Part shown: piece by piece, positions 7,544 to 62,454 of the stretch
Layout of the letters: every line of letters begins with the position of its first letter
How positions within the stretch are numbered: position 1 is the stretch's first letter
From: a phage
Direction: 5' to 3' (one strand)
Sequence record: QB031382.1
Length of the DNA stretch: 64,000 nt
The notes under the pieces: model-generated
The model's input: only the letters and a program-made list of their open reading frames with translations
What the model was told of the DNA's origin: nothing
The model's database searches: none
Made by a program: the position numbers and the translations under genes

Positions 7544-7554
7544 TACATCTCTCT

Positions 7555-7745
7555 CAGTACTCGATCTGTTTTTCATTTCAAAGATTGGATTTTCTGAAAA
7601 TTTTTCTCGATAAATTTTTCGGTACTCGATCTGTTTTTCGTTTTCTGAATCGGATTTTCTTGAAATTGGTCCAGCACCAGATCTAAAATTTTTGGGAACG
7701 AAAGCGATTTTTCGTTTTCAGAAATGGATTTTTAAAATTTCTATA
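7555..7745. repeat. tandem direct repeats, about 65-bp unit, 2-3 copies
   Basis: GTACTCGATCTGTTTTTC exact at 7557-7574 and 7622-7639, each followed by GGATTTTCT-GAAA-type sequence; degenerate third copy near 7700. Confidence 0.7.
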
Positions 7746-7874
7746 TGGGAATATTTTATGAGGTATTATTTTATATAGAATTGTCACGGTAGGTAATTAG
7801 CATGCTAACTAAATTTATGAAATGCGAAAAGTTCTCATTTAGAATTTTGAATGATAATCATTCTCGTTTGCAGA

Positions 7875-7903
7875 ATAACGGGCACCCCCGGTGATTGTCT
7901 CCC
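7875..7903. repeat. 29-bp inverted-repeat arm A, partner at 15983..16011
   Basis: ATAACGGGCACCCCCGGTGATTGTCTCCC is the exact reverse complement of 15983-16011; degenerate tandem copy near 8012-8050. Confidence 0.85.
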
Positions 7904-8412
7904 GGCCCCTACTGCCCCGGCTTGCTATTATAGTATCACACAGGACAAAGAAAGCAAGGAGTTTTTGCATAAATTTTTAGACGATAATGATAATCGTTCT
8001 CATTTCATGCAGCGCCCATCCCCGGTGGTTGTCTCCCCCGTCACCGGTGCCTGCCGTCCTTTCGATATGTATATTGTGCCACCTGGCGGGGCCGCTGTCA
8101 ACACTTTTCAAAAATTTTTTTCTAACCTGATGCACTAACCGCTGCAACCTGGCGGGGCCAGCCTGGCAGGACCTAACTGACCAGGTGGGCCTATGCTATA
8201 GGATAGGTAACAATTGAAGAGGAGGTACAAAAAATGGAAGGTAATATGATCCCCTGGAAAATGTAGCTATTAATGACGCTGAGGCTATCGCCCTGGTTGA
8301 AAAGGCTATGGCGGGAGCGTTGGAACATAAAGAAGAGTACGAAAAAATTATGGTTAACCTGGCAGGGTCGGCGGCTGAGGAATTTTGCCCAAAAAATAAT
8401 TTTAACTAGTGG

Positions 8413-8441
8413 TTGACAGCTCGGACAGTTTTTGCTATTCT
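8413..8441 (+). promoter_or_regulatory. sigma70-like promoter
   Basis: TTGACA 8413-8418, 17-bp spacer, TATTCT 8436-8441. Confidence 0.5.
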
Positions 8442-8493
8442 TATCCTCGCAAGGTGAACAACACCACACTAATTAACAGAGAGGATAAAAATC

Positions 8494-8691
8494 ATGAACG
8501 CCTACGGAATCAAAGTACGTCGCAACACTCGCCAGGTGGTCACCAATCAAGTGATTTGCCGGGCGGATGTAACCATCAACAACGGGCAAGGCCTTTATAA
8601 ATTTCGTCGCGGTCATAGTTATACCCTGCAACAGCTTAATCGTTGCGCCCTGACAAAAGGCCAGATCAACCACTGGTTTAATAAAAAATAA
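8494..8691 (+). CDS. hypothetical protein
   Basis: Track ORF; RBS GAGGA upstream. Confidence 0.55.
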   Translation: MNAYGIKVRRNTRQVVTNQVICRADVTINNGQGLYKFRRGHSYTLQQLNRCALTKGQINHWFNKK

Positions 8692-8694
8692 GTA

Positions 8695-8723
8695 TTGACA
8701 TATAGCCTGACACAAAATACACT
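8695..8723 (+). promoter_or_regulatory. sigma70-like promoter
   Basis: TTGACA 8695-8700, 17-bp spacer, TACACT 8718-8723. Confidence 0.5.
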
Positions 8724-8755
8724 AAAAGCACAAAAGACACTAAGAGGATAAAATC

Positions 8756-9154
8756 ATGAAAACCACTACCTTTAATTTTGACAATGCGGACTTTTCTTTT
8801 TCTGATGTCAAGAACTGCCGCCGTGATCGTGGATTTTATAAGGCTTATAATCTGGTGGGCCTGGACGATGACAATAATTTGCACGAAGTAGCTGAGATCC
8901 GGTATTATGCCGCCGCCAGTGGGAACACTCACTACTGCGTTTTTTGGATACACGACAACAAGAACAATAAGTACGGCTATACTGGCGGCAAGGCGAGCGG
9001 TCACGGTTATGATAAAGCTAACGCAGCACTTGAGAGCGCATTAAATGCTATGGGGATCACTGCCGACGGCTGGATCTACGAAGAAGAGTTTTTGTCGGCA
9101 CTTGCTGACCGCCTGGGATATAAAAAGCACATTGTAACATGTGCCCACGAATAA
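8756..9154 (+). CDS. hypothetical protein
   Basis: Track ORF; RBS AAGAGGA upstream. Confidence 0.55.
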   Translation: MKTTTFNFDNADFSFSDVKNCRRDRGFYKAYNLVGLDDDNNLHEVAEIRYYAAASGNTHYCVFWIHDNKNNKYGYTGGKASGHGYDKANAALESALNAMGITADGWIYEEEFLSALADRLGYKKHIVTCAHE

Positions 9155-9165
9155 AAAAAAAATTA

Positions 9166-9193
9166 TTGACACGCTGCAAAATTCAAGTAAACT
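9166..9193 (+). promoter_or_regulatory. sigma70-like promoter
   Basis: TTGACA 9166-9171, 16-bp spacer, TAAACT 9188-9193, preceded by A-tract. Confidence 0.5.
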
Positions 9194-9241
9194 AGACACA
9201 AAAGGCGGGAATGTTTCCCGCCAACACAAAGGAAAAAGATC

Positions 9242-9646
9242 ATGAATAAGAACGTACGCCGCATCATGAACGAGTTGGCAAACGATGAAAAAATTATTGA
9301 CATGCATTTGATCAACATTTGCCGCCGTTGTGTAACATATAACAACCGCGCCGCAAAAGCGCGTGAGATGAACGCAAAAGGCACCTTAAAGCCATTCCAG
9401 GTGGTGGTAAAGGCCATTAAAAATGTAACTAATACGGCAAACCAGGTACAGGGGAACACCAACGAGAGTACCAATATTGATCCGGCTTACATCATGAAAC
9501 GGATCCGGACCTGTAAGAACAAAGAGCAAGTGTATAATGTTATAGACTGGTTGGATTCTATGGGCGACGTGGTGTACAATAGATTCTCGGCAGCTATTGA
9601 GATCCAGCTTGACAGGTTGGACGGTAAAGTACTGAAAACTTATTAA
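9242..9646 (+). CDS. hypothetical protein
   Basis: Track ORF; RBS AAGGAAA upstream. Confidence 0.5.
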   Translation: MNKNVRRIMNELANDEKIIDMHLINICRRCVTYNNRAAKAREMNAKGTLKPFQVVVKAIKNVTNTANQVQGNTNESTNIDPAYIMKRIRTCKNKEQVYNVIDWLDSMGDVVYNRFSAAIEIQLDRLDGKVLKTY

Positions 9647-9694
9647 GTTTATTTTTAGATGGCCTTGACTCCAGGGCCATCAATAAAGTAAACT
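9645..9694 (+). promoter_or_regulatory. repeated promoter-hairpin module, copy 1
   Basis: AT-rich tract, then GATGGCC..GGCCATC inverted repeat containing TTGACT, then TAAACT; near-identical copies at 10266 and 13992. Confidence 0.55.
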
Positions 9695-9846
9695 AGTCTC
9701 AACTAAGCGAAAAAGGGGGCTTTAAGATGAGCACTACACGCCAATACACAAAGGTAACTATTATCGTTTGCGTTGTCGGTTACATCCTGGCGCAAATGTT
9801 AATGAGTAGCGCCAACAGTTTTGCAAAATTTTTCTTAAATTTTTAA

Positions 9847-9874
9847 TTGACAAGCTAACCCAAATCAGTATACT
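9847..9874 (+). promoter_or_regulatory. sigma70-like promoter
   Basis: TTGACA 9847-9852, 16-bp spacer, TATACT 9869-9874. Confidence 0.55.
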
Positions 9875-9925
9875 TAAACACGTAAACGGGAAAACTTCCC
9901 AGAACACACAAAAGGAGAAAACACC

Positions 9926-10267
9926 ATGACTACTATGACCGCCGCAGAAAAAGCTATGCAGATCGCCGCGCTGAAAAAACAGATCGCAGACCTTGAGAAC
10001 AAGATCGATAACTTTGAAATCGACGAGGACAAGTACGACGAAAACTATAATGAATGGCTAGACGAGATCCACGGCGAAATTATGATCGGTAACATTTCTT
10101 TTCTTCCGTCGCGTATCCTCAAGGAGTTAGATCCTATCGCTTACCGCTGCGGATTTAGCGACTACATCGACAGCCTGGGCATTGAGGACGACGAAGACTA
10201 TCAAGAATTGCAGACAGAGTTGGAAGAAATGAAAGAGGAGCTTTCAAAGCTGGAAGAAAACGAGTAA
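9926..10267 (+). CDS. hypothetical coiled-coil acidic protein
   Basis: Track ORF; RBS AAGGAGA upstream. Confidence 0.55.
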   Translation: MTTMTAAEKAMQIAALKKQIADLENKIDNFEIDEDKYDENYNEWLDEIHGEIMIGNISFLPSRILKELDPIAYRCGFSDYIDSLGIEDDEDYQELQTELEEMKEELSKLEENE

Positions 10268-10317
10268 AATTTATTTTTAGATGGCCTTGACCCCAGGGCC
10301 ATCAATAAAGTAAACTT
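10266..10317 (+). promoter_or_regulatory. repeated promoter-hairpin module, copy 2
   Basis: TTTATTTTTAGATGGCCTTGACCCCAGGGCCATCAATAAAGTAAACT, near-identical to copies 1 and 3. Confidence 0.55.
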
Positions 10318-10353
10318 TACACTGTTACACTGAACTAATGAGGAGTTAAAACT

Positions 10354-10599
10354 ATGGCAGCACTAATCACAAAATATTATGCGCCCACCAACACCAAAAG
10401 CGCCCGTATCATGGTAAAAGGTTTCGGACGTAAAAAGGTCTACACCTGGGACTATTCCCTAGATATGGAAGACAATTATACCAACGTAATGACTGATTTT
10501 ATTAATGATCTGAATAAACAGATCCTAACCGACTACAAAGTGACCGATATTGTTTACATAGGTGAAGGCGGGATCTGTTTTGTAGGCATTGTGAAATAG
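10354..10599 (+). CDS. hypothetical protein
   Basis: Track ORF; RBS GAGGAG upstream. Confidence 0.55.
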   Translation: MAALITKYYAPTNTKSARIMVKGFGRKKVYTWDYSLDMEDNYTNVMTDFINDLNKQILTDYKVTDIVYIGEGGICFVGIVK

Positions 10600-10675
10600 T
10601 TATTTTTTCGGTGGTCCTGGTTGCAGGGGCCATCTATAAAGATAATTTATTAACACCATGAAAGGAGAAAGTAAC

Positions 10676-11029
10676 ATGATCAGCGGGGCCAGTTTTATTA
10701 TCGGCGCTATTGCTACGGCTTTAATTGTAAACAAGATCCAGGATAAAAAGGAAAGAGGAAGTACCGCCCTTGCAGAATATCCATTTTGGACATTCAACGA
10801 TAACGAAGATTATATTATAAAGTATAAAAATAAAGAAGGCGACCAAGTAACACCGCGACCGATCCCGGCTTACAAAATGCAGGAAACACTATACCGCCTT
10901 GAGGCGGGCGGCGCAAAAATTGTTGACTTTTGGGGATACGACCACACAGATCAGGAAGTTATAAAGCGCCGTATCCGGGCTATTCAGGCCAATATTGAGG
11001 TTAGCAAGAGGGGAATATATGAAAATTAA
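10676..11029 (+). CDS. hypothetical membrane protein
   Basis: Track ORF 10658..11029 trimmed to ATG 10676 after AAGGAGA; N-terminal hydrophobic helix. Confidence 0.5.
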   Translation: MISGASFIIGAIATALIVNKIQDKKERGSTALAEYPFWTFNDNEDYIIKYKNKEGDQVTPRPIPAYKMQETLYRLEAGGAKIVDFWGYDHTDQEVIKRRIRAIQANIEVSKRGIYEN

Positions 11030-11216
11030 TTTCGAGAAAATTGTAAAGCGCCCTCATGATTCCGAAGAGTTGCCAGAACGCCGCCAGCGCAACAATAAGC
11101 TGAATAAGCCAAAAAGGTTTGGGAAGATCTGGCGTAATCATTATGATCGTAAATTGCCCGGCCTACTTTTGGAACGTGAACGACAGGCAGAACGCTACCG
11201 CCATAAAGACAAATAA
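11019..11216 (+). CDS. hypothetical basic protein
   Basis: Track ORF 10995..11216 trimmed to ATG 11019; overlaps previous gene end. Confidence 0.45.
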   Translation: MKINFEKIVKRPHDSEELPERRQRNNKLNKPKRFGKIWRNHYDRKLPGLLLERERQAERYRHKDK

Positions 11217-11224
11217 CAACCAAC

Positions 11225-11253
11225 GCCCCGCCATTGTGCGGGGCTTTTTATTT
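11225..11253 (+). terminator. rho-independent terminator
   Basis: GCCCCGC-CATTGT-GCGGGGC hairpin followed by TTTTTATTT. Confidence 0.8.
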
Positions 11254-11373
11254 CTATCCTACGAATAGCGCCCCTGGTTGGCCCTGTAAGCGCCAAAAAG
11301 GCCCCCACCTATGCAATCGCCCCTTTAACCTGAAAACATCGCCCAGGGCCGTCCTATGGCGTTAAAAATATCA

Positions 11374-11401
11374 TTGACATCGTCAACAGGTTAGCTATAC
11401 T
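11374..11401 (+). promoter_or_regulatory. sigma70-like promoter
   Basis: TTGACA 11374-11379, 16-bp spacer, TATACT 11396-11401. Confidence 0.6.
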
Positions 11402-11433
11402 AACCACATCAAAGAGAGAAAGGAGTAAACGCC

Positions 11434-11694
11434 ATGCGTAAATTAAAAAATTTTGATAAAGTTGATGTTATCCTGAATAATTTTTACTACTGCAACAATA
11501 AAGCTATCTGGTGGCGGGATAGTTCCACCGATAAAGTCAAAGCGCGCTTTCTTCAAGGGCACTGGCAAGGCCGCCCAGTGATTAAAATCATGGGGCAATT
11601 GGTAGCGTTTAAAAATTGCCGCCGCGTTGATGACGTTGAGGAGATTTTAAACATTTTGCGCCACAATAATTTAAAAAATAGTGTTGACAAGTAG
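11434..11694 (+). CDS. hypothetical protein
   Basis: Track ORF; RBS AAGGAG upstream. Confidence 0.55.
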   Translation: MRKLKNFDKVDVILNNFYYCNNKAIWWRDSSTDKVKARFLQGHWQGRPVIKIMGQLVAFKNCRRVDDVEEILNILRHNNLKNSVDK

Positions 11695-11711
11695 ATCTCA
11701 ATAAGTATAAT
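11684..11711 (+). promoter_or_regulatory. sigma70-like promoter
   Basis: TTGACA 11684-11689, 16-bp spacer, TATAAT 11706-11711. Confidence 0.65.
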
Positions 11712-11768
11712 TAAACACACAGGCGGGAAAACTTCCCGCCACTAACAAAGAAAACAGGAGAAAATATC

Positions 11769-12392
11769 ATGACCACCGTTAACATTACCACAGGTTACAA
11801 TTTATCTTTCGACGTGCTGACCGACGAACAAAAAGAAAAAGCCATTGAAATGGTCCGCGAAAGAGAAGAACGTAGCGGGGACGATTTTTTCGCAGAAAAT
11901 GTAATTGAATACTATAAAGAACAAGTTTTTCCAGAGTACGGCCTTGAGGATACCGAAGTACATTGGTCCGGCTTTTGGTGTCAAGGCGATGGCGCATCGA
12001 TCAGTGCTGAAAATGTAGACTTAGAAAAATTCTTGCGTAAAGTCAAGGCCCTGACCAAGTTCAGATCAATTCGTCACTTGTTCGGCACAATGCACGATGG
12101 CGAACTATCCGCCAGTGTTGAACGCGACAAGTACAGCCATTACAGCCATGAAAACACTATAAGCGGGTACATTGATACCACTTGGATAGATCTGACCGCC
12201 AAACAAGAAAACAAAGTGGAAGACCTGGAAGAATTGATCACCGAGACGGTACGGGAGCTATCCCGCAAGGTTTACGTAGACCTTGAGGAGGCCTATCTAG
12301 AACAGTTCACCGCAGAAAACCTGATCGGCCTTATTCAGGCCAATGATTGGCGGTTTGATGTCGATGAATATGGTGAGATGACTTTTTCATAA
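11769..12392 (+). CDS. hypothetical protein
   Basis: Track ORF; RBS AGGAGA upstream. Confidence 0.55.
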   Translation: MTTVNITTGYNLSFDVLTDEQKEKAIEMVREREERSGDDFFAENVIEYYKEQVFPEYGLEDTEVHWSGFWCQGDGASISAENVDLEKFLRKVKALTKFRSIRHLFGTMHDGELSASVERDKYSHYSHENTISGYIDTTWIDLTAKQENKVEDLEELITETVRELSRKVYVDLEEAYLEQFTAENLIGLIQANDWRFDVDEYGEMTFS

Positions 12393-12485
12393 ATAAAGTG
12401 TTGCAATAACCTAAAAACCTGCTATATTAAAACTCAAGGGGGGCAAGACATTTGCCCGCCAACACAAAACAAAGAGGATAACATC

Positions 12486-12866
12486 ATGAAAAATACTACT
12501 AAGGCTATTGACACCGTTATGTTTAACCTGGTTACACTCCGTGAAGATATGAAAGATCTTCCGCGTGAAACAGTGTGCGACCATATCGAAAACTATCGCA
12601 AACTAATCAAAGAGTTGCCATTAAAACGAGATCAGTACGCGGCTAACGCTATGCTAAACGCCATGATCAAAAAGATGATCCAGTGTGATCTAACCCTGGC
12701 CTATGATTATGCAGGCGGTCGTTTTGCAGTATACAATCAGCCCGTGCCTGGTATGAGCACCACCGAAGAATTGCACGCGCTCAATCTAAAACAGGACGTG
12801 TGGGATAGTATGCCTCGCGTGGTGGTATGGGTAGAAAGCGGGAAGATTTACGGCGATAATTTTTAA
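12486..12866 (+). CDS. hypothetical protein
   Basis: Track ORF; RBS AGAGGA upstream. Confidence 0.55.
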   Translation: MKNTTKAIDTVMFNLVTLREDMKDLPRETVCDHIENYRKLIKELPLKRDQYAANAMLNAMIKKMIQCDLTLAYDYAGGRFAVYNQPVPGMSTTEELHALNLKQDVWDSMPRVVVWVESGKIYGDNF

Positions 12867-12876
12867 TCAGGTAGCA

Positions 12877-12902
12877 GGCGGCATAATTGCCGCCTTATTG
12901 TT
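12877..12902 (+). terminator. rho-independent terminator
   Basis: GGCGGC-ATAATT-GCCGCC hairpin followed by TTATTGTT. Confidence 0.65.
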
Positions 12903-12930
12903 GATCAGAACTGCAAAAGGGGTACATAGA

Positions 12931-13302
12931 ATGGAATTTATTATTTTGGCCGTATTGGTTGCCTTATTTAACGCCTGGATCGCTGGCAAGATGGGAAGAT
13001 CCGCCTTTTTATGGTTTATTATATCTATTTTCCTGGGGGTGGTTGCAACTATTGTACTGGTTATCCTTGCAATTGTTGACAAGGGGAATAATAGAAAGGG
13101 TAAAGTATTTTCAGACCTGTACGACGCTCAAACGTTTGTCAACGCCTATTACAGCGATCTTCCAGTCTCCCTACGTTGCAGCCTTGCACAACAGGTTTTT
13201 GATGAGGCTAAAACCAGAGATCACGCCCATGAGATTTGTTTAACTGAGGCGGATCGCTTATTTGAGAGGAATAGAAAATATGTGGGCCAGCCGTTTAAAT
13301 AA
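12931..13302 (+). CDS. hypothetical membrane protein
   Basis: Track ORF 12898..13302 trimmed to ATG 12931 after AAAGGGG; two hydrophobic helices. Confidence 0.5.
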   Translation: MEFIILAVLVALFNAWIAGKMGRSAFLWFIISIFLGVVATIVLVILAIVDKGNNRKGKVFSDLYDAQTFVNAYYSDLPVSLRCSLAQQVFDEAKTRDHAHEICLTEADRLFERNRKYVGQPFK

Positions 13303-13521
13303 TACCACGTTAATTAATCCATTTAGTGAAGATTTGAGGCCAGCCGCCTGGCGGAATGGATTCAATAACGAAAAATTTACTTTTAGGCCTGATCTTGAGG
13401 AATTTTATAACAATGGATCGAACAACGACAGAAATAATTTTTCTCGTAATGTGCGTGGCGATAATACTCCTGGGGGCCATTGTAAACCACGTCACTGCTA
13501 ACAGGAGGAAAGGGGGAGACG

Positions 13522-13641
13522 ATGACAACCAAGGATAAGCCCAGCACCGACAAGGCGCGCCGCGTTATGGTATGGCTTGAGATTATCGCCCTTGAAATAT
13601 TGTTAGGCGTAGGGATGTATTTTATCGCCGTACGTACCTGA
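13522..13641 (+). CDS. small hydrophobic protein, 39 aa, absent from track
   Basis: ATG 13522 preceded by AGGAGGAAAGGGGGAG; hand translation MTTKDKPSTDKARRVMVWLEIIALEILLGVGMYFIAVRT. Confidence 0.45.
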   Translation: MTTKDKPSTDKARRVMVWLEIIALEILLGVGMYFIAVRT

Positions 13642-13645
13642 TAAC

Positions 13646-13677
13646 GGCCCCCGATCCCTGGGGGCCTGACTTTTTTC
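13646..13677 (+). terminator. rho-independent terminator
   Basis: GGCCCCC-loop-GGGGGCC hairpin followed by TTTTTTC. Confidence 0.65.
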
Positions 13678-13705
13678 AAAAAAAAAAATTTTTTCTTCCG
13701 GGGTG

Positions 13706-13734
13706 TTGCAATCCGGTCCGGAATATGGATAATA
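13706..13734 (+). promoter_or_regulatory. promoter, family 2
   Basis: TTGCAA then conserved AATATGGATAATA; same architecture at 14524-14552. Confidence 0.45.
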
Positions 13735-13792
13735 ACAATCAACGGGGAGACACTCCCCACCACACAGACAAAGTTCCAAAAGGAGAAACAAA

Positions 13793-13993
13793 ATGAGCAA
13801 CAATATCCGCGTTATTAACTTCAAAAAAGAAGAAAAAATAGCTGTGCTGGTTGATGGTCAAGAAATATTCAAGGGGTATTACGAAGATCATCAGGCGGCG
13901 ATCAGTATTACCCGCGTAATTGGTTACCATAATTTTTACCCTCAAGGCGCTGAGGCAGCAGTAAAACGAATTAAGGAGATTGTAGGCCTGTAA
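13793..13993 (+). CDS. hypothetical protein
   Basis: Track ORF; RBS AAGGAGA upstream. Confidence 0.55.
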   Translation: MSNNIRVINFKKEEKIAVLVDGQEIFKGYYEDHQAAISITRVIGYHNFYPQGAEAAVKRIKEIVGL

Positions 13994-14043
13994 AATTTAT
14001 TTTTAGATGGCCTTGACCCCAGGGCCATCAAATAAAGTAAATT
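13992..14043 (+). promoter_or_regulatory. repeated promoter-hairpin module, copy 3
   Basis: TTTATTTTTAGATGGCCTTGACCCCAGGGCCATCAAATAAAGTAAAT. Confidence 0.55.
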
Positions 14044-14085
14044 TAAAACCTGTTAAAATAATCAGTGCAAAAAGGAGAAATGATC

Positions 14086-14385
14086 ATGTTTATACCCGCC
14101 AATGATCTTTATTTCTTTGATGGTCAGATCGTAGACGGCGTGGAAGTTGAGATCGCTGGATGTAAAGGCGGCCAGGTAATGATCTTCCGCAATAGTGCCT
14201 TTAACGATCATTTTATTACAATGACTGTGGAAGTTAAAAAGCTGGATGATAAGAAAACACTCATTGACTATTCCGTGAAAGATCATCCAGACTACCACAT
14301 GATCTATGGTGATTTGTGCATTGTTGACCGTGACAAGGTGGGCGGCATTGTGATCGCTATTGTGAACGATGTTTTCTCTGAATAA
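14086..14385 (+). CDS. hypothetical protein
   Basis: Track ORF 14065..14385 trimmed to ATG 14086, best spaced from AAGGAG. Confidence 0.5.
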   Translation: MFIPANDLYFFDGQIVDGVEVEIAGCKGGQVMIFRNSAFNDHFITMTVEVKKLDDKKTLIDYSVKDHPDYHMIYGDLCIVDRDKVGGIVIAIVNDVFSE

Positions 14386-14523
14386 TTCCGGCAAATGATG
14401 CAAAATAAGGCCCATGGCAGGGCCTGCAGCGATATAATCACACAAAGGCTATGCAGTTGCATGGCCTTTTTATTTTAGCGCTACAGCGGCCCCCAAGGCG
14501 TTTAAAAAATTTTTAAAAAGTAC

Positions 14524-14552
14524 TTGCATCAAGTCCGACAATATGGATAATA
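14524..14552 (+). promoter_or_regulatory. promoter, family 2
   Basis: TTGCAT then AATATGGATAATA. Confidence 0.45.
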
Positions 14553-14610
14553 GGACTTATCAGGGGGGGGCGGCCCCCAATCATTAACCGGATAGATGGG
14601 AGTTAAAATC

Positions 14611-14895
14611 ATGGCTATTGTTACCGTGGGCGATGTAGTAGAAATGGAAGCAAAATACTTAAAAGCGGGTATGCATATCCTACGCAACGATCTTGAACTA
14701 GTCCTGACAATGGTCGACTATAATCCCGGTCAGGATTATCCAAGCATCGACTACTTTTTCCAGTATGTTGACGAAGAATTAAAAGAAGATGACGCTTATC
14801 GTGGTGAATTTTGCAATTTCTTTTGCCCTGATGAGGTTGTAAAAGTTATCTATCAACCTGGCGTACCTTTCCCGTTGCACGCCATCAATAAATAA
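14611..14895 (+). CDS. hypothetical protein
   Basis: Track ORF 14596..14895 trimmed to ATG 14611 after GGGAG. Confidence 0.5.
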   Translation: MAIVTVGDVVEMEAKYLKAGMHILRNDLELVLTMVDYNPGQDYPSIDYFFQYVDEELKEDDAYRGEFCNFFCPDEVVKVIYQPGVPFPLHAINK

Positions 14896-15020
14896 GCCTG
14901 GCGGGGCCGAAAAAGGCCCCTCCTGAAACTATGAAAAAATAAAGATAGGTGAATCATCATGATGGAACAAATTAAACGCGCTGAGGCTATTAATGGCAAT
15001 GATGCCGCCAACATGACAGA

Positions 15021-15284
15021 ATGAAAAACATCATTTACAGATTGACAAAACGCAACATCATGATCGCCACCGTGATCGCTTGCCTTTTCGCTTTCGTGAG
15101 TAACGCAACGTTTAACGCCGTGGGCCGGGTGGTGTTTAATGCTGGCAGTGTTTCAACAGCTAACACAATAATCGATTGTTTGCAACTTTTCTTTTATGTT
15201 GCCTTTCGTTTAAAAATAGCTTGCAAGGTAGACCGTTTTGATTTACCTTTTATTTGTGGCGGCGTGATCGCTATCGTATGCTAA
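15021..15284 (+). CDS. hypothetical membrane protein
   Basis: Track ORF; hydrophobic segments. Confidence 0.45.
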   Translation: MKNIIYRLTKRNIMIATVIACLFAFVSNATFNAVGRVVFNAGSVSTANTIIDCLQLFFYVAFRLKIACKVDRFDLPFICGGVIAIVC

Positions 15285-15356
15285 CAGAGGATCAGAAGAA
15301 AAGTGTACGACATAGGGCGGGGCAATAAGGCAACGCCCATTAATGAGGGTGGAATC

Positions 15357-15461
15357 ATGTTAGAAAAAATTTTCACGGTTGTAGTAGTTGGCATGGCATT
15401 ATCGGTTGGAGTGGTTGCAACTATGGCTAACATGATCCTATCTTCCCACGGTATCGGGTAA
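15357..15461 (+). CDS. small hydrophobic protein, 34 aa, absent from track
   Basis: ATG 15357 after GAGGGTGG; hand translation MLEKIFTVVVVGMALSVGVVATMANMILSSHGIG. Confidence 0.4.
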   Translation: MLEKIFTVVVVGMALSVGVVATMANMILSSHGIG

Positions 15462-15471
15462 GGTGAAACAA

Positions 15472-15630
15472 ATGATCACGAACAAAACAGGAAAAACGGA
15501 ATTTTTACGCGGCTTGCAAATAGGTAAGCCTGAGATCTGGTATTGCACTAAAACACCACGTGACGAAATGAAAGATTTTACCGCCACGCTGAAGCGGGTA
15601 AAGATATCTATCACGCAGAAAAAGCCTTGA
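15472..15630 (+). CDS. small protein, 52 aa, absent from track
   Basis: ATG 15472 after AAGGTGA; hand-translated open frame to TGA 15628-15630. Confidence 0.4.
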   Translation: MITNKTGKTEFLRGLQIGKPEIWYCTKTPRDEMKDFTATLKRVKISITQKKP

Positions 15631-15776
15631 TAGTGGTGGAAGGTGAGATCCCTCAAGCCGTTGTTATAGTTGAGCGTACAGCATAGTTTAATCTATACCG
15701 TACGCCCCATTAACTAACAAAGCATAAGCAGGCGGCGGTGACCGCCTTGAACGCAACAGAAAGAGAATAGAAAAGC

Positions 15777-15911
15777 ATGAGAAAGGTAATTATCACCATA
15801 GGGATCGTGGCGGCAATGTTGGCGATCTTTCCCTTTATGGTTAGGTATGTGCTGATCAGTATTGTCCTGATAGTCAGTGGTCTATTGGAAACGGTTGGCA
15901 ACTGGTTTTAA
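15777..15911 (+). CDS. small hydrophobic protein, 44 aa, absent from track
   Basis: ATG 15777 after AAAGAGAA; followed by terminator hairpin. Confidence 0.4.
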   Translation: MRKVIITIGIVAAMLAIFPFMVRYVLISIVLIVSGLLETVGNWF

Positions 15912-15919
15912 GATAATAA

Positions 15920-15948
15920 ACAGGGCTTGCAATGGTCCTGTTTTTTGT
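15920..15948 (+). terminator. rho-independent terminator
   Basis: ACAGG-loop-CCTGT hairpin followed by TTTTTTGTT. Confidence 0.5.
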
Positions 15949-15982
15949 TATACTTATCTCACGGGTGGCACCTGGCGACGGG

Positions 15983-16011
15983 GGGAGACAATCACCGGGG
16001 GTGCCCGTTAT
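15983..16011. repeat. 29-bp inverted-repeat arm B, partner at 7875..7903
   Basis: GGGAGACAATCACCGGGGGTGCCCGTTAT, exact reverse complement of arm A. Confidence 0.85.
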
Positions 16012-16030: not shown

Positions 16031-16059
16031 TTGACATCTGCCAGGTGGTTAGGTAACAT
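16031..16059 (+). promoter_or_regulatory. sigma70-like promoter
   Basis: TTGACA 16031-16036, 17-bp spacer, TAACAT 16054-16059. Confidence 0.5.
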
Positions 16060-16113: not shown

Positions 16114-16386
16114 ATGTCAAGCTGGATTAATCAAAAAGTTGAATCACGTTTTAATGCTATCTGGGATCTCATCGAAAAAGAGGACGGAACATCAAGCCCT
16201 TACCTCAATAATCTTGAATTCCATTTTGTGGAAGCGATGAACGCAGAACATGATCACAAAGGTGGCGCGGATGAGTTCGCTCAAGGGTATGGCTTCAACA
16301 ATGCCAACGAAATGATTGAAGCGGTTGTACTTCAGGCTGAGGAAGATTATCAATTAAAAACACTTGAATTTTGCCGCCGTAAGTAA
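16114..16386 (+). CDS. hypothetical protein
   Basis: Track ORF; RBS AGAGGAAAA upstream. Confidence 0.55.
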   Translation: MSSWINQKVESRFNAIWDLIEKEDGTSSPYLNNLEFHFVEAMNAEHDHKGGADEFAQGYGFNNANEMIEAVVLQAEEDYQLKTLEFCRRK

Positions 16387-16752: not shown

Positions 16753-17364
16753 CTCTTTTCCTACCATAAACGGCCCTACCTGGCAAGTGGAATAATTGAC
16801 GAGCCATTAATCCCGCACACTGTACAAATATACATATAAAATAACTATTGCATAATCTTTCATCTTGTGGTAGCAGGGTCATTTTTACACGTTTTTCCTT
16901 CCAAAAATGCACGTAATGCAGCTATTGCACAAAATTTAACCTGATGCACATTTTCAGCATACTGTCAACAATTAAAAACCCTTATAAATCATACACTTAC
17001 ACAAACCAAAAAGCGTGTCCTACGTGAAAAATCGGGTGTAACTATAGCCGACAGATCTCAGAATCCACGTACGATCACCATTCTATAGCCTGCTAAGTAT
17101 TTATTCCAACCACAGAATAACGGAATAGTCAATACCTGTACAAAATAATTATTCGTATAAACTGCATAACATAAATTTTCTCATGTGTAAACATTTTTCG
17201 TAAACAGTCCGAAATTGTCACGATAGGTTACTATAATCAGAGAAATCTTTAGTCGTCTAATGTTTACTGCACATAACTATACTGACTGGAATCATTAGAT
17301 GACTAAGAGAAAGATAAGAAATAGTTAACAATGTAATTGTTTTACCTGTAACAATAAGGCAACT

Positions 17365-17642
17365 ATGCAAACGAATGTCATGGCGCGACGGAGTCGCGAC
17401 ATAATATAAAAGCAGTAACCATCACCCCCGTGATAGTTTATCTGCAAACTATTGATCAGATCATAGTTGCCTTAGATTTAGTTAATCATGACATAATAAG
17501 CAAGGCAACTATAGATCTGATAATAGTTGCCCTGCTTTTATATTATGTCATATATTATTAACCTGTTAATTGTCAGCTTATTGGCTGTTAGCTTGTCAAT
17601 TGTTAACTTGTTAATTGTTATCATGCAAACGAATGTCATGGC
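17365..17642. repeat. composite repeat element: 20-bp direct repeats flanking an 18-bp inverted-repeat pair
   Basis: ATGCAAACGAATGTCATGGC at 17365-17384 and 17623-17642; GACATAATATAAAAGCAG 17398-17415 is the reverse complement of 17532-17549; interior has repeated GGCAACTAT/ATAGTTGCC and a TGATCAGATCA palindrome. Confidence 0.8.
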
Positions 17643-17653
17643 TTATCATCTTT

Positions 17654-17765
17654 GTGTAAACTGTCAGGGTGTAGACTATTCAAGGTGTAAATTATTCAGA
17701 TGCAAACTATCCAGGCGTAAACAGTCTATGCGGGAACAATCTGCACGTGAACAATGAAACATGAA
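17654..17765. repeat. degenerate tandem array, about 16-bp period, about 7 units
   Basis: GTGTAAACTGTCAGG / GTGTAGACTATTCAAG / GTGTAAATTATTCAGA / TGCAAACTATCCAGGC and further units. Confidence 0.55.
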
Positions 17766-19254
17766 ATAATAACAGTCGTTATTGTATCGAAAGTGTATAA
17801 GGTGTCAGATTATGGCATATTGTGTGACATTGTGTCAGACAAGTTTTTCTCCTCTTTGTCAAGTGCTGCATGTAAAATTTACAAACTGGTATGGTAGCAT
17901 TTTTGCGGCCCTGTTTACATTCAGGAGTGTATGTATAACCCTTGTTGTGTGGGCGTTTAGACGTCTGGACGGTCAGAAGTCTGCAGGTTAATATCTAATC
18001 TATTGGTCGCTAACTATATCCCCACAAATAATAAGAAATGCAATTGTTATATGCGTAAACAGTAACTCATGTTATCAATCCCTGTATGTATCGCCAGTGG
18101 TGCGCATAATGGGTATTATGTTAAATTGCCCGTAATGATAACGATTCTCACAATGATAGGTATTCTCATTCACCCGCCCAGGATAGGTTGCAAATGTTGT
18201 GCCACTGTGTGAACGGCCTCGCCTATTAATTTGCCTCACTGCCCCGATATTTGAGAATTATTATAAGAATGAGAAGTATTCCCATTTCGTCCGCCTGGCA
18301 GCACTCCTGTAGGACAAGCACAAAATCGTGGCATAACTGTACCTGTTCAGATATTTCTGGCTGACTCTTCAGGTCTGTGTGGGAAAAGCCAACCTCTCCG
18401 GCGGCGGGGAGTGGGTCAATTAAAAAATTTACGTGGTGTATGAAGCGCTCTTCAGGTAAGGCAGGTATTATGGGATGAATCACTCTTCAGGTGATGATAT
18501 TTGTAGGTGTGATATTTGCTGGAAAGCCAGATATGACGGGACTCCCGGCGGGGCAGGGGTAGTACAGACAGGGAAAATGTGGAGAATGTGGTGGGTAAAT
18601 TGATCAAGCAGGTAGAGTATGGAATATGTTACAGGTATGTTAAATATGGAGGTAAGATATTTGTAAGATTTGTGTGTAAAATCAAAGACTTAAGTAGTGT
18701 TGTGGTATTTTCTATAAATAATTCAAGTTTAATAGGGAATATTTGCCTCTATCCACTTTGTATGGTAACTATATTCTAATTGAATTGGTTTACAAGTGTA
18801 TATAAAGTATACAAATTAAAGATACAAGAAACCCCCCTCCCCCTTCGGCTACCATTCACCTTTTCCTCTGACTGGTACTTAAACACTTATTCAGACTCTT
18901 CAGGTTATCACTCATATATCATATGGCAGTGACTGGTGTCCTCCGGCCCCTCTTTCGTCACCCGTCCGCTTCGCCATGCTAATGCCATAGCTAACTGTTC
19001 GGTTGTTCACCCTGTTCACTCAGGTGTATCTCCATACCCCTTCAAACCGAAGAGAACAGAAAACCCGAATTACTCGGTAAAAGAAAAGAGAAGAACTTAA
19101 TTTTATCAGGATAGGCAAGAATGTCAAGGCATGACTGCTCACTAAACAAGCAAACAGTCATGTGTGGGAGGTAAGTGATTGTGGTGGTAGGAAATTTAGT
19201 TGAAAGATGTGTTATAGGTGCTTCCAGCACTTTAGCCTGGCAGCTAATTGTGTG

Positions 19255-20105: not shown

Positions 20106-20417
20106 CTATACCCATGAGGGCTTGTCCAGGTTGGAGTAACTGAAAGGGGTCAAAAGGTGACTGTCAAAATCTTTCAAACTGTCCAGATCTTTTTCCTCGT
20201 CCTGACACCATCTGTGTCTACATTTATTGTTGTAGTGCATGGAATGCATAGCGTTCTGCAACTTAATAGGCACAAGTGATTCAGGAGTAGATAGAATTGT
20301 TGGGTATGCCAGAACTATCTCAAACAATGGAAACACATCGAAACTAAAGTCTACCTCTGCAGAGGTTGATGGCATATAGGAGTATTTAGCCGCCCTTGTA
20401 GACATAATCCACCTCAC
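20106..20417 (-). CDS. hypothetical protein
   Basis: Track ORF. Confidence 0.5.
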   Translation of the reverse strand: MRWIMSTRAAKYSYMPSTSAEVDFSFDVFPLFEIVLAYPTILSTPESLVPIKLQNAMHSMHYNNKCRHRWCQDEEKDLDSLKDFDSHLLTPFSYSNLDKPSWV

Positions 20418-32587: not shown

Positions 32588-32899
32588 TTATTTAGCAATC
32601 ACTATAGAATACTTACGATTGTCAGAAGCATCACAGCTCAATGATTGCCAGTCTACCACATACCACGTATCATTGTCAACAATTACTTTATCGCCTGTTC
32701 TGTAGCAGGTGCTGCTTTCAATAATCCGAGACTCGATAAAGAATCTGTGTCGGCGCTCACGTAGCAACGCTAAGTTGATTATATTACCACCACTGTCCTT
32801 GGTCCACACATTCTTGGATCCCTTATTTGCCAAAATTGTCTCGCCGTTATATACAAACAGGCAGTATATTTTATTCAGTCTCTCTTGTATTGTAGCCAT
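32588..32899 (-). CDS. hypothetical protein
   Basis: Track ORF; RBS AAGGAG; own promoter with -35 TTGACA (complement of 32965-32970). Confidence 0.55.
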   Translation of the reverse strand: MATIQERLNKIYCLFVYNGETILANKGSKNVWTKDSGGNIINLALLRERRHRFFIESRIIESSTCYRTGDKVIVDNDTWYVVDWQSLSCDASDNRKYSIVIAK

Positions 32900-32925
32900 A
32901 CTGTGCCCTTCTCCTTGTTTTGTTC

Positions 32926-32946
32926 AATAATAATAATAATAATAAT
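32926..32946. repeat. (AAT)7 microsatellite
   Basis: Seven perfect AAT units; on the minus strand they overlap the -10 and start of the 5-prime UTR of gene 32588..32899. Confidence 0.9.
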
Positions 32947-32988
32947 ATCTAAAGCTCACCTGTTTGTCAACAACTGTTTTAGATATTT

Positions 32989-33009
32989 AAGGGTGGAATA
33001 ACCACCCTT
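32989..33009 (-). terminator. rho-independent terminator after phoH
   Basis: AAGGGTGG-loop-CCACCCTT 8-bp stem; minus strand continues UUAAAUAUC. Confidence 0.6.
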
Positions 33010-33014
33010 CTGTA

Positions 33015-33803
33015 TTACTCGGAAACAGGAGTCCAAATATGATTTGCACGATCCTCAATAAGATTGAGTGCAATCTGACGGCCCAACCCGGAACGAACGA
33101 CATCGTCTGGACTATCAAAGCTAATCATTCCAACCTCAGGATCTGGATGACGAGTAAAGAAATCCGTCACCCATGCAAGGCCAGATTTACCAGGGATGTC
33201 ACGTTGGCTATTATCACCCATAATTACAAGGGTGGCCTGATCAGAGATCCTTGTGATGATTGACAACATTTCTTCAGGATTGGTTTGCTGTGCTTCATCA
33301 ATAAGGACAAAGCATCGTTCATCAAAACTACGACCACGAATGCTTTCAACCTCACAAATCTCGATACGGCTGTTCTGACCGTCCCCAAGCATTGCTGCAA
33401 AAGCACCTTTGCCAACACGACGACAAATAGTGTCCATCATGCTTCGAAGATAGGGCCACAGTTTCTGCATTGCATTTCCGGGTTTAAATCCTGAAGTCTT
33501 TCCTGTCTGAACGTAAGGACGTGCAACAATGATCTTATCAATCTCGTTCTTGCGCAGAAGATCACCTGCATATGCAGATGCCATGAATGTCTTACCGGAT
33601 CCAAACACACCGTTTACAATGATAATCTTACGCGACCCTAGATAATCAAGATACTTTTGCTGCTTTTTATTCATTGGTCGGAGAGCTGGAGCGGTGTGCT
33701 CTCGTTCGTCAGCAAATTTTTCAGCAGCCTTACGCAGGCGATCAGATTTGCGAGCCTCTCTAGCTTCATCACGCATGCGTTTTGTTTCTTTAGCTCGACC
33801 CAT
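33015..33803 (-). CDS. phoH: PhoH-like ATPase
   Basis: Walker A GVFGSGKTFMA and overall PhoH-like layout. Confidence 0.8.
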   Translation of the reverse strand: MGRAKETKRMRDEAREARKSDRLRKAAEKFADEREHTAPALRPMNKKQQKYLDYLGSRKIIIVNGVFGSGKTFMASAYAGDLLRKNEIDKIIVARPYVQTGKTSGFKPGNAMQKLWPYLRSMMDTICRRVGKGAFAAMLGDGQNSRIEICEVESIRGRSFDERCFVLIDEAQQTNPEEMLSIITRISDQATLVIMGDNSQRDIPGKSGLAWVTDFFTRHPDPEVGMISFDSPDDVVRSGLGRQIALNLIEDRANHIWTPVSE

Positions 33804-61641: not shown

Positions 61642-61716
61642 GCCCTGTTAGCTTAGTGGATAAAGCAGCGGCCTTCTAAGCCGTTGACACTGGTTCGAGT
61701 CCAGTACGGGGTGCCA
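61642..61716 (+). tRNA. tRNA-Arg(UCU): tRNA-Arg (anticodon UCU)
   Basis: Hand-folded cloverleaf: acceptor GCCCTGT/ACGGGGT, loop CTTCTAA, T-loop TTCGAGT, encoded CCA. Confidence 0.8.
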
Positions 61717-61720
61717 AATT

Positions 61721-61807
61721 GGGGAGTTATCCCGTAGAGGTAGCGGTGTAGACTGTAAATCTATTGTCATTGCGACTCGGGTGGTTCGACTCCACCACTC
61801 CCCACCA
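61721..61807 (+). tRNA. tRNA-Tyr(GUA): tRNA-Tyr (anticodon GUA), long variable arm
   Basis: Acceptor GGGGAGT/ACTCCCC, loop CTGTAAA, T-loop TTCGACT, encoded CCA. Confidence 0.75.
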
Positions 61808-61921
61808 AATTTATATTTTTAAATGCATAAATCATACAGATAATGACATTGATATTTATCGTCGTTTATACTAGTCACTAACTGCTCGAAAATCAGTGTC
61901 ATTATCAGTGTAATTTATAAA

Positions 61922-62012
61922 GGAGGGTAGGGAGCAATGGTGCTCAAGCGGTCTTGAAAACCGTCCCGTTGAGGATGACTCGATGATGGTTCGATTCCAT
62001 TACTCTCCGCCA
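61922..62012 (+). tRNA. tRNA-Ser(UGA): tRNA-Ser (anticodon UGA), long variable arm
   Basis: Acceptor GGAGGGT/ACTCTCC with one GU, loop CTTGAAA, T-loop TTCGATT, encoded CCA. Confidence 0.75.
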
Positions 62013-62110
62013 CATTGTTGACCTTGTAATTAAGCGAAAGCCGGAAGCAGAACCGGATTATCAAATGTTACAGTCGTCATCGCCGACTAGCCACATGGTC
62101 AACATATTGC

Positions 62111-62207
62111 GCTAGGTAAGCCCTTTGGCAAGGGCGAGGATTTTTAATCCTGAAAATAGACGCGGTAGTCGTTGAATACATAGGTGGTTCGATTCCATCA
62201 CCTAGCA
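62111..62207 (+). tRNA. atypical tRNA-like gene, identity unresolved
   Basis: Perfect acceptor GCTAGGT/ACCTAGC, D-arm and T-arm (TTCGATT), but the anticodon region is a 6-bp hairpin AGGATT/AATCCT with UUU loop and about 30 extra nt; 97 nt. Confidence 0.4.
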
Positions 62208-62214
62208 CCTTTTT

Positions 62215-62290
62215 GCTGATGTAGCACAATCGGTAGTGCAATTGATTTGTAATCAATAGGTTGCAGGTTCAAGTCCTGCCATCAGCACCA
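62215..62290 (+). tRNA. tRNA-Thr(UGU): tRNA-Thr (anticodon UGU)
   Basis: Acceptor GCTGATG/CATCAGC, stem ATTGA/TCAAT, loop TTTGTAA, T-loop TTCAAGT, encoded CCA. Confidence 0.8.
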
Positions 62291-62291
62291 T

Positions 62292-62366
62292 GGCCCTGTA
62301 GCTGGAAGGTTCAAGCAAGCGACTCATAATCGCCAGACGGTGGTTCAATTCCACCCAGGGCCACCA
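62292..62366 (+). tRNA. tRNA-Met(CAU): tRNA-Met or tRNA-Ile2 (anticodon CAU)
   Basis: Acceptor GGCCCTG/CAGGGCC, loop CTCATAA, T-loop TTCAATT, encoded CCA. Confidence 0.75.
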
Positions 62367-62377
62367 AATTATAAATA

Positions 62378-62454
62378 CTCCGCGTAGCTCAGCTTGGTAG
62401 AGCGCCTGATTTGGGATCAGGAGGTCGAGTGTTCGAATCACTCCGTGGAGACCA
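62378..62454 (+). tRNA. tRNA-Pro(UGG): tRNA-Pro (anticodon UGG)
   Basis: Acceptor CTCCGCG/CGTGGAG, D-arm GCTCAGCTTGGTAGAGC, loop TTTGGGA, T-loop TTCGAAT, encoded CCA. Confidence 0.75.

Follow-up and report, generated by a model that had tools for sequence, protein, structure and literature searches.

A promoter-proximal sequence element, present in three copies with one inverted in an rV5-like coliphage, recurs in other phage lineages

In phages lambda and HK022, early promoters of opposite direction are each closely followed by a conserved signal (nutL and nutR in lambda, putL and putR in HK022), and putL, which directly follows its promoter, needs no phage protein (PMC9378689). Such signals act on transcripts or on RNA polymerase, not on DNA, and short conserved elements placed after opposite promoters form an inverted pair several kilobases apart. 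A similar arrangement was found in a stretch of 64,000 nucleotides (64 kb) of phage DNA (sequence record QB031382.1; hereafter the window), which derives from an rV5-like myovirus of E. coli (Vequintavirus) and is closest to FV3, at about 95% identity. There, the 29-nucleotide (nt) sequence ATAACGGGCACCCCCGGTGATTGTCTCCC is located at 7875-7903 (+) and its exact reverse complement at 15983-16011, 8079 nt apart, and each of these arms follows a predicted promoter of its own, with which it forms what is here called a module. The element resembles nut and put in geometry, and antitermination at this locus would be hypothetical: the phage is not lambdoid, boxA, boxB and the structure of two stems of about 70 nt are absent, no similarity was found in Rfam or in sequence, and only some copies allow a GACAA stretch to be drawn as a boxB-like loop. 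Also unlike nut and put, the left copies have no downstream genes, and some modules of other phages run into the terminator of a convergent gene.

Another precedent comes from the same phage group. Pectobacterium phage phiTE (rV5-like, now in Certrevirus) carries a pseudo-ToxI non-coding RNA, composed of small, expressed intergenic repeats that act as RNA (PMC3475682). Small intergenic RNAs therefore have a precedent in these phages; the ToxI mimics are head-to-tail repeats of 36 nt on one strand, whereas the copies described here are dispersed and one of them is inverted. Part of the ToxI sequence reads GGTGATTTGCTACC, which superficially resembles GGTGATTGTCTCC of the window, with the similarity stopping at about 11 nt. 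A type III antitoxin mimic was rejected, as head-to-tail repeats of about 34-45 nt on a single strand were not found.

The perfect 29-bp inverted repeat reported in the original prediction was confirmed, as no other match to ATAACGGGCACCCCCGGTGATTGTCTCCC with up to three mismatches is present in the window and the number expected from 100 shuffles was 0. A degenerate tandem copy, likewise predicted, was recovered at 8003-8039, where the DNA is 78% complementary to the right arm and includes a core at 8022-8036. A profile built from 17 copies and scanned over the 64 kb gave exactly three copies, spaced by 134 nt and 8.1 kb and one of them inverted. The element is about 30-35 bp long and, on the strand of its promoter, reads GGAGACAA(T/C)CACCGG-GGGTGCCCGTTAT; common to all copies is an invariant, non-palindromic core of 15 bp, GGAGACAAnCACCGG, with one free position. 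The copies and the predicted promoters that precede them are listed below.

7875-7903, minus strand: copy 1 (left arm), with the core GGAGACAATCACCGG at 7902-7888 (-) and the profile hit at 7869-7909 (-), 43.5 bits
7927-7957, minus strand: promoter of copy 1, with -35 TTGCTT (7957-7952), a 19-nt spacer, -10 TATAAT (7932-7927) and a predicted start at about 7920
8003-8042, minus strand: copy 2, degenerate, with the core GGAGACAACCACCGG at 8036-8022 (-) and a profile score of 32.1 bits
8073-8101, minus strand: promoter of copy 2, strong, with TTGACA, a 17-nt spacer, (TG)CACAAT and a predicted start at about 8066
15961-16011, plus strand: copy 3, a hairpin at 15961-16008 with the right arm at 15983-16011 and the core at 15984-15998 (+), 44 bits
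15918-15954, plus strand: terminator and promoter preceding copy 3; the terminator hairpin of the upstream gene (15918-15943) holds the -35 TTGCAA (15927-15932) in its loop

The other half of copy 2, GTCACCGGTGCCTGCCGT (8041-8058, +), is common to the hairpin arm of the right copy. A further sequence, CCTGGCGGGGCC, had been taken for a motif related to the 29-mer. It does recur at three sites (8082, 8148 and 14897), at coordinates 2-8 nt away from those first given, but the sites are separate GC-rich features (a minus-strand promoter spacer, a hairpin and a terminator stem) and fall outside the 29-mer family.

The distance from the -10 hexamer to the core is 24 nt for copy 1, 36 nt for copy 2 and 29 nt for copy 3. 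The promoter of copy 2 scored 11, a value reached by 1.1% of random positions, and that of copy 3 (a 16-nt spacer, (TG)TATACT at 15949-15954 and a predicted start at about 15961) scored 9.5. The modules of copies 1 and 2 point leftward and that of copy 3 rightward, and it is because the module promoters would fire in opposite directions that the elements have the appearance of an inverted repeat. Promoters scoring at least 9 were present within 12-45 nt upstream of 11 of 15 copies, as compared with 4.7% of random positions, and in the opposite orientation at 3 of the 15. The copy 1 promoter was found at all Vequintavirus loci, and a sigma70-type promoter also precedes the core in the Certrevirus phage CR3 (both copies), in Hena1, in P7_Pc and in divergent metagenomic relatives. 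When left copy 1 was compared with the right copy, only the 29-33-bp element was common to both, with sharp borders; the promoters and the promoter-core spacers of 24-29 nt were unrelated. Conservation therefore concerns the element and its position close to the predicted start, which points to a requirement that the element be transcribed near a 5' end.

The right arm is situated in a 200-bp intergenic gap, with a terminator on one side and the promoter of a 90-codon gene on the other. The following features lie downstream of copy 3.

16031-16059, plus strand: a second, ordinary promoter, TTGACA-17-TAACAT
16114-16386, plus strand: the gene served by copy 3, encoding 90 amino acids (phrog_7287, with no assigned function)

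The right module is an addition between the terminator of the previous gene and the ordinary promoter of gene 16114, and terminators were also found downstream of it. A matching terminator-promoter design is present at the right copy of CR3. The gene that follows the right copy is not conserved in CR3, and the neighbouring proteins are without known domains.

The left motif is well conserved among relatives. A segment of 41 nt at the left arm is 95-100% identical in about 115 rV5-like records, in which the flanking DNA is 87-95% identical, and 31-36 nt of the motif are 88-97% identical in Certrevirus and Henunavirus (phages of Cronobacter, Pectobacterium and Erwinia). All three copies are syntenic in the eight Vequintavirus genomes inspected (8/8) and in two IMG/VR contigs; diverged right copies in relatives were missed by BLAST. 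CR3 has a left copy and an inverted right copy with arms 10.6 kb apart, and the same arrangement across genera indicates that the inverted pair is old and fixed, and neither recent nor strain-specific. Among relatives, the longest exact match of one arm to the other ranges from 12 to 29 nt, the full 29 nt being reached in the window and in phage WM, and the arms are 8.0 to 9.6 kb apart. Variants beside the core covary between left copy 1 and the right copy of one phage (CACCC with CACCC, CAGGC with CAGGC and, in NHEP1, ACAGGCA with ACAGGCA), which indicates either that gene conversion has acted or that copies which match or complement each other are selected for. Among the records compared, 16-18 named 'Campylobacter phage' (MG0656xx, host C. 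jejuni) were about 88-96% identical to E. coli rV5-like phages in all regions tested, and their host labels look doubtful.

The same module was found in two further lineages. The second lineage, represented by an IMG/VR contig and its metagenome relatives (from freshwater samples, together with a 215-kb contig), has 14 distinct modules, with up to five in 12 kb. In 12 of the 14, a -10 hexamer (TATAAT, once TATACT, often with an upstream TG) was detected automatically 21-23 nt before the core, and in a 13th a TATAAT at 23 nt was recognized by eye. A co-directional open reading frame (ORF) starts 103-212 nt downstream in ten modules, and in the remaining four the end of a convergent gene is found, with no ORF. 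At the one 6-kb locus of this lineage that was compared, the flanking ORFs had no similarity to the window and the DNA matched no catalogued phage. The third lineage is represented by a 168-kb contig, faintly similar to Pseudomonas phages, on which a single module (TTGACA-17-TATGAT, 28 nt, core) is placed between two small co-directional genes. In the window, 115 nt separate the end of the copy 3 core from the start codon of gene 16114, a distance that falls in the range of 103-212 nt and makes the right copy a typical gene-leader module. The two left copies, which point away from all genes, are 'orphans'. No single gene family was found constantly downstream of the module. Among the matches listed for representative bacterial genomes, the core occurred only at random or in coding sequence, including genes of Pantoea and Enterobacter; a BLAST search of the 15-mer against E. 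coli genomes returned nothing, the method being insensitive to so short a query.

These comparisons establish, at the level of sequence, a conserved family of repeats associated with predicted promoters, and the element looks like an undescribed promoter-proximal phage control signal. In the literature, no paper contains the motif or describes the region, and the main text of the rV5 genome paper lists promoters and terminators, with the element absent. That the promoters fire, that the element acts at the RNA level and what it does there, we infer. The reading that we favour, with about even confidence, is that the element is a signal of early transcription units, carried in a promoter-proximal 5' leader or a short non-coding RNA, and not a site of DNA rearrangement. 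As each core lies 24-36 bp downstream of its own -10, host RNA polymerase should transcribe the element near the RNA 5' end, at about +17 to +50. At the right copy, a promoter and a leader would be added ahead of the ordinary promoter of gene 16114, and at the left locus the leftward modules, set against operator-bearing promoters, would form transcriptional-interference or antisense units. Our preferred guess is that the nascent 5' leader would be recognized by a conserved host or phage factor, with the fate of the RNA or its elongation being altered as a result.

Part of the structural evidence agrees with action as nucleic acid. In copy 3, the 29-mer supplies one arm of a hairpin of about 48 nt, together with part of its loop; the hairpin folds better than shuffled sequences (z of -2.3 to -2.6). 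When phage groups are compared, a double change of GGGTGCC to GCCTGCC in one arm of the right copy is matched by a change of GGTGGCA to GGCAGGCA in the other, and such compensatory changes argue that nucleic-acid structure matters.

Several observations weigh against a leader acting as RNA. The consensus folds of the right hairpin are similar on the two strands, with a slight edge to the strand opposite the promoters (13 pairs and 2 broken cells) over the promoter strand (12 pairs and 5 broken cells), the copies have no fold in common (nine of them, folded singly, gave discordant structures) and the cores of the second lineage appear unstructured. The copy 1 promoter scores only 8, lowered by its 19-nt spacer. 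The left modules have no gene downstream and are antisense to the upstream operon, which is awkward for a pure mRNA-leader role. Finally, an invariant and asymmetric sequence of 15 bp would fit a protein site in duplex DNA equally well.

The main rival is accordingly that the core is a double-stranded DNA site, at about +16 to +30, for a host or phage protein that would shut off a subset of early promoters or act as a roadblock. We regard this as possible but clearly the less probable account. It would suit the lack of an RNA structure common to all copies, the tight spacing of 21-23 bp to the -10 in most modules of the second lineage and the presence of a second protein site (an operator) 20 bp from the left copies. 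However, the spacing to the promoter ranges from 24 to 36 bp in Vequintavirinae, the compensatory arm changes of the right copy would be needless, and the core is also found in lineages without detectable shared genes nearby, so that the binder would need to be either a host protein maintained in different hosts or the product of a co-transferred gene. The analysis identified no candidate for such a binder.

Recurrence in unrelated phages also raises the doubtful idea that the core and its own promoter are a horizontally shared signal, marking a subset of early units; a conserved component of the host, for instance RNA polymerase, would recognize it in the form of nascent RNA or of non-template DNA. 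If so, the element would reprogram elongation or RNA fate in a protein-independent manner, in the spirit of HK022 put but unrelated to it in sequence.

The left arm is part of a 700-bp non-coding region (7544-8234) with three direct repeats and two palindromic operators, of which the following concern the left copies.

7847-7876, plus strand: promoter-like site facing copy 1, with TTGAAT (7847-7852), an 18-nt spacer and CAGAAT (7871-7876)
7983-8001, no strand assigned: Fur-box-like operator GATAATGATAATCGTTCTC, matching the E. coli Fur consensus at 17/19 positions, 20 nt from copy 2

The rightward site at 7847-7876 is weak (8/12 to consensus), has a predicted start at about 7883 and holds in its spacer the operator palindrome TGATAATCATTCTCG (7852-7866). 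Given the predicted starts at about 7883 (+) and 7920 (-), the two RNAs would overlap by about 38 nt across the core of copy 1. This arrangement is conserved in three genera and is present in CR3, Hena1 and P7_Pc, and in the divergent relatives L002, L212 and L220 the layout is kept with other hexamers (TTAAAT-17-TATATT). The operator at 7983-8001 may hold a second rightward promoter, with GATAAT as its -10. As far as its sequence can tell, the left locus would present two convergent-promoter units, arranged in tandem where the small-gene block begins. Face-to-face lytic and lysogenic promoters are known from coliphages 186 (pR and pL) and P2 (Pe and Pc). As in those phages, a leftward promoter faces a rightward, operator-bearing promoter at both left copies, with a predicted transcript overlap of about 38-65 nt, and the geometry is that of transcriptional-interference switches. 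Unlike 186 and P2, the present phage is virulent and lacks an immunity region, its rightward promoter is weak, and the overlap contains a conserved core that has no counterpart in either of them.

Matches to the Fur consensus with up to three mismatches were expected 0.02 times in the scan. The match at 7847-7865 is 15/19 and contains the 15-bp palindrome in the promoter spacer. Like the Fur boxes of Enterobacterales, the sites are 7-1-7 palindromes, and the one with the 17/19 match (7983-8001) overlaps promoter elements; unlike them, most of the phage sites carry in each half-site a G in place of the T of Fur boxes. Palindromes of the form TGA(T/G)AATnATT(C/A)TCA were found at 7852-7866, at 7983-8002 and at 18136-18284 (in the terminal repeat), and in CR3 (locus L141) at 20153-20263, 31014 and 32616-33216, clustered near the CR3 terminus. 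The palindromes suggest a regulon of Fur or of a phage DNA-binding protein, and their clusters in the terminal repeat suggest that a phage-encoded binder is equally possible. In the doubtful reading of a horizontally shared signal, the element of Vequintavirinae would also be wired to these Fur-like operators, and early phage transcription would thereby be coupled to the iron status of the host.

The facing promoters allow a different, and in our judgement unlikely, account of the repeats as a sense/antisense pair. Plus-strand RNA from 7847-7876 would begin with the 29-mer and right-module RNA would carry its exact complement, allowing the copies to pair in trans and regulate one another; the leftward RNAs would be antisense in cis, and mutual complementarity would freeze the sequence. 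The perfect complementarity of 29 nt here and in phage WM, the covariation of core-adjacent variants between left copy 1 and the right copy, and the promoters facing the left copies would all agree with this. But the exact match is only 12-26 nt in the other relatives, the concerted changes are equally explained by gene conversion, and in the second and third lineages most modules are co-directional leaders, which no promoter consistently opposes.

The left non-coding region might instead be a replication origin, with the following repeats as its iterons.

7547-7732, no strand assigned: three iteron-like direct repeats of 65-74 bp, downstream of both leftward modules

In that case G-rich transcripts from the two tandem leftward promoters would run into the AT-rich stretch and the iterons, with activation by a primer or an R-loop as at T7 or T4 origins, and the right copy would be a secondary origin. 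The promoters, the operators, the AT-rich stretch and the three repeats are conserved in three genera, and the leftward RNA has clusters of G. We nevertheless think an origin improbable as an explanation of the repeats: the G clusters are absent in Hena1, no replication initiator is linked to the region, the second lineage has its modules, up to five in 12 kb, mostly before genes, and an origin would account for the region and not for the repeated core. The iteron-like repeats carry GATC and the half-operator-like TTTTCATTTC, and they adjoin the AT-rich stretch; the same layout is present in three genera and occurs in CR3 and Hena1, and such repeats were also recorded in L012 (about 1150-1350) and L013 (about 1215-1400). 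Either a replication origin or an auxiliary array of operators could be represented by them.

Some features of the block itself agree with what had been predicted. About 25 small genes are bracketed by the arms, in agreement with the 25 coding sequences between the arms in the FV3 annotation, and they do appear to be promoter-driven, as at least ten strong plus-strand sigma70-like promoters lie between the arms; the genes are presumed to be early. In seven annotated relatives, all coding sequences between the arms encode small hypothetical proteins and are on one strand. The proposal of paired regulator binding sites survives in part, in that the sites do appear regulatory, but they are not a pair bracketing the block. 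The original prediction had also offered a recombination or inversion site pair, or the boundary of a mobile cassette. In principle, 29 bp of perfect inverted repeat would suffice for rare exchange by a recombinase, and the arm-to-arm length does vary among relatives, as given above. Yet inversion of the 8-kb block, whether site-specific or homologous, and terminal repeats of a cassette are largely refuted and hardly credible: the interior and its two flanks share one strand in at least 28 related genomes, with no inverted isolate among them, none of the ten largest ORFs between the arms has a recombinase or transposase domain, a target-site duplication is absent, with GCAGA outside one arm and ATAAA outside the other, there are three copies and not two, both arms are present in all relatives inspected and in another genus, with the arrangement kept between genera, and the arms are non-identical in most relatives.

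The position of the arms relative to the genome end was derived from EdH4. Vequintaviruses have terminal repeats of 458-459 bp (PMC6563267, PMC7471380), and for EdH4 a terminal redundancy of 458 bp was reported (PMC6563267). The first position of the EdH4 record aligns to 18295 of the window. With that record assumed to start at the physical end, the arms are 2.3 and 10.4 kb from the inferred end; being so distant from it, they are not packaging sites (pac or cos) or the terminus. By the same alignment the terminal repeat occupies about 17838-18295, within a region of about 2 kb (17300-19250) around the inferred terminus that is poor in ORFs, rich in repeats and provided with strong minus-strand promoters (17569-17542, 17838-17781 and 19127-19100).

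A number of known signals were compared with the element and rejected. Searches of Rfam at the gathering threshold over the whole window returned tRNAs only, and searches by E-value with both loci and the modules of the second lineage returned nothing relevant; a tRNA or other known RNA family was dismissed after ARAGORN and Rfam were both empty at the two loci. An intrinsic terminator after the core was rejected, the U-rich tract having no consistent preceding stem. Pairing of the 29-mer with E. coli 16S, 23S or 5S rRNA or with three tRNAs was no better than that of shuffled sequences. A mimic of a ribosome-binding site was also set aside, with similar ribosome-binding-site spacers in two second-lineage genes and no target in the window. 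The ops element of RfaH is GGCGGTAGCGTG, located on the non-template strand in a leader. The sole module resembling it, in the second lineage (GGGGTAGCGTG), lacks the C at position 3, and the Vequintavirus copies read GGGGGTGCCCGT. Inspection by eye disposed of a sigma54 promoter (wrong spacing), a -10-like pause element (last base T, A or C), a G-quadruplex (absent in Hena1) and sites for CRP, marbox, boxA and CsrA.

The rV5-like phages are widely used as candidates for biocontrol and therapy of E. coli O157, and their early gene control is essentially uncharted. No other non-coding DNA of the group is as conserved as the element, the adjacent operator and the 700-bp control region, and three predicted starts, a 15-nt core and one palindrome offer handles on early transcription. 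That unrelated phages carry the module as well suggests that it is a portable regulatory part, directed at conserved machinery of the host, and the element would be a candidate for catalogues of RNA or regulatory motifs and possibly a part for synthetic biology.

Further features of the block and its surroundings were recorded. A basic protein of 55 codons with no assigned function, phrog_5988 (15463-15630; 29743-29907 in L141/CR3), is 67% identical between Vequintavirus and Certrevirus and is among the few conserved proteins near the right copy, encoded 0.35-1 kb upstream in both genera; it is a candidate regulator. The first ORF after the control region (8235-8267) has a strong ribosome-binding site and only 10 codons, and FV3 has there ORF181, of 59 codons; the short ORF could be a frameshift, a leader peptide or a mis-annotation. 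Repeated early-promoter cassettes of 61-66 nt, 74-90% identical, are present at 9634-9694, 10256-10316 and 13982-14042 and, as another family, at 9847-9912 and 11684-11749; in the first family a GGCC...GGCC hairpin surrounds the -35. A CCWGG (Dcm) site is found in the spacer of several promoters of the window and of CR3. The tRNA cluster at 61642-62454 includes an odd tRNA-like gene of 99 nt (62111-62209), to which ARAGORN assigned a four-base anticodon (atcc) and which scored 35.5 bits as an Rfam tRNA; it could be intron-bearing, frameshift-suppressor-like or a pseudogene.

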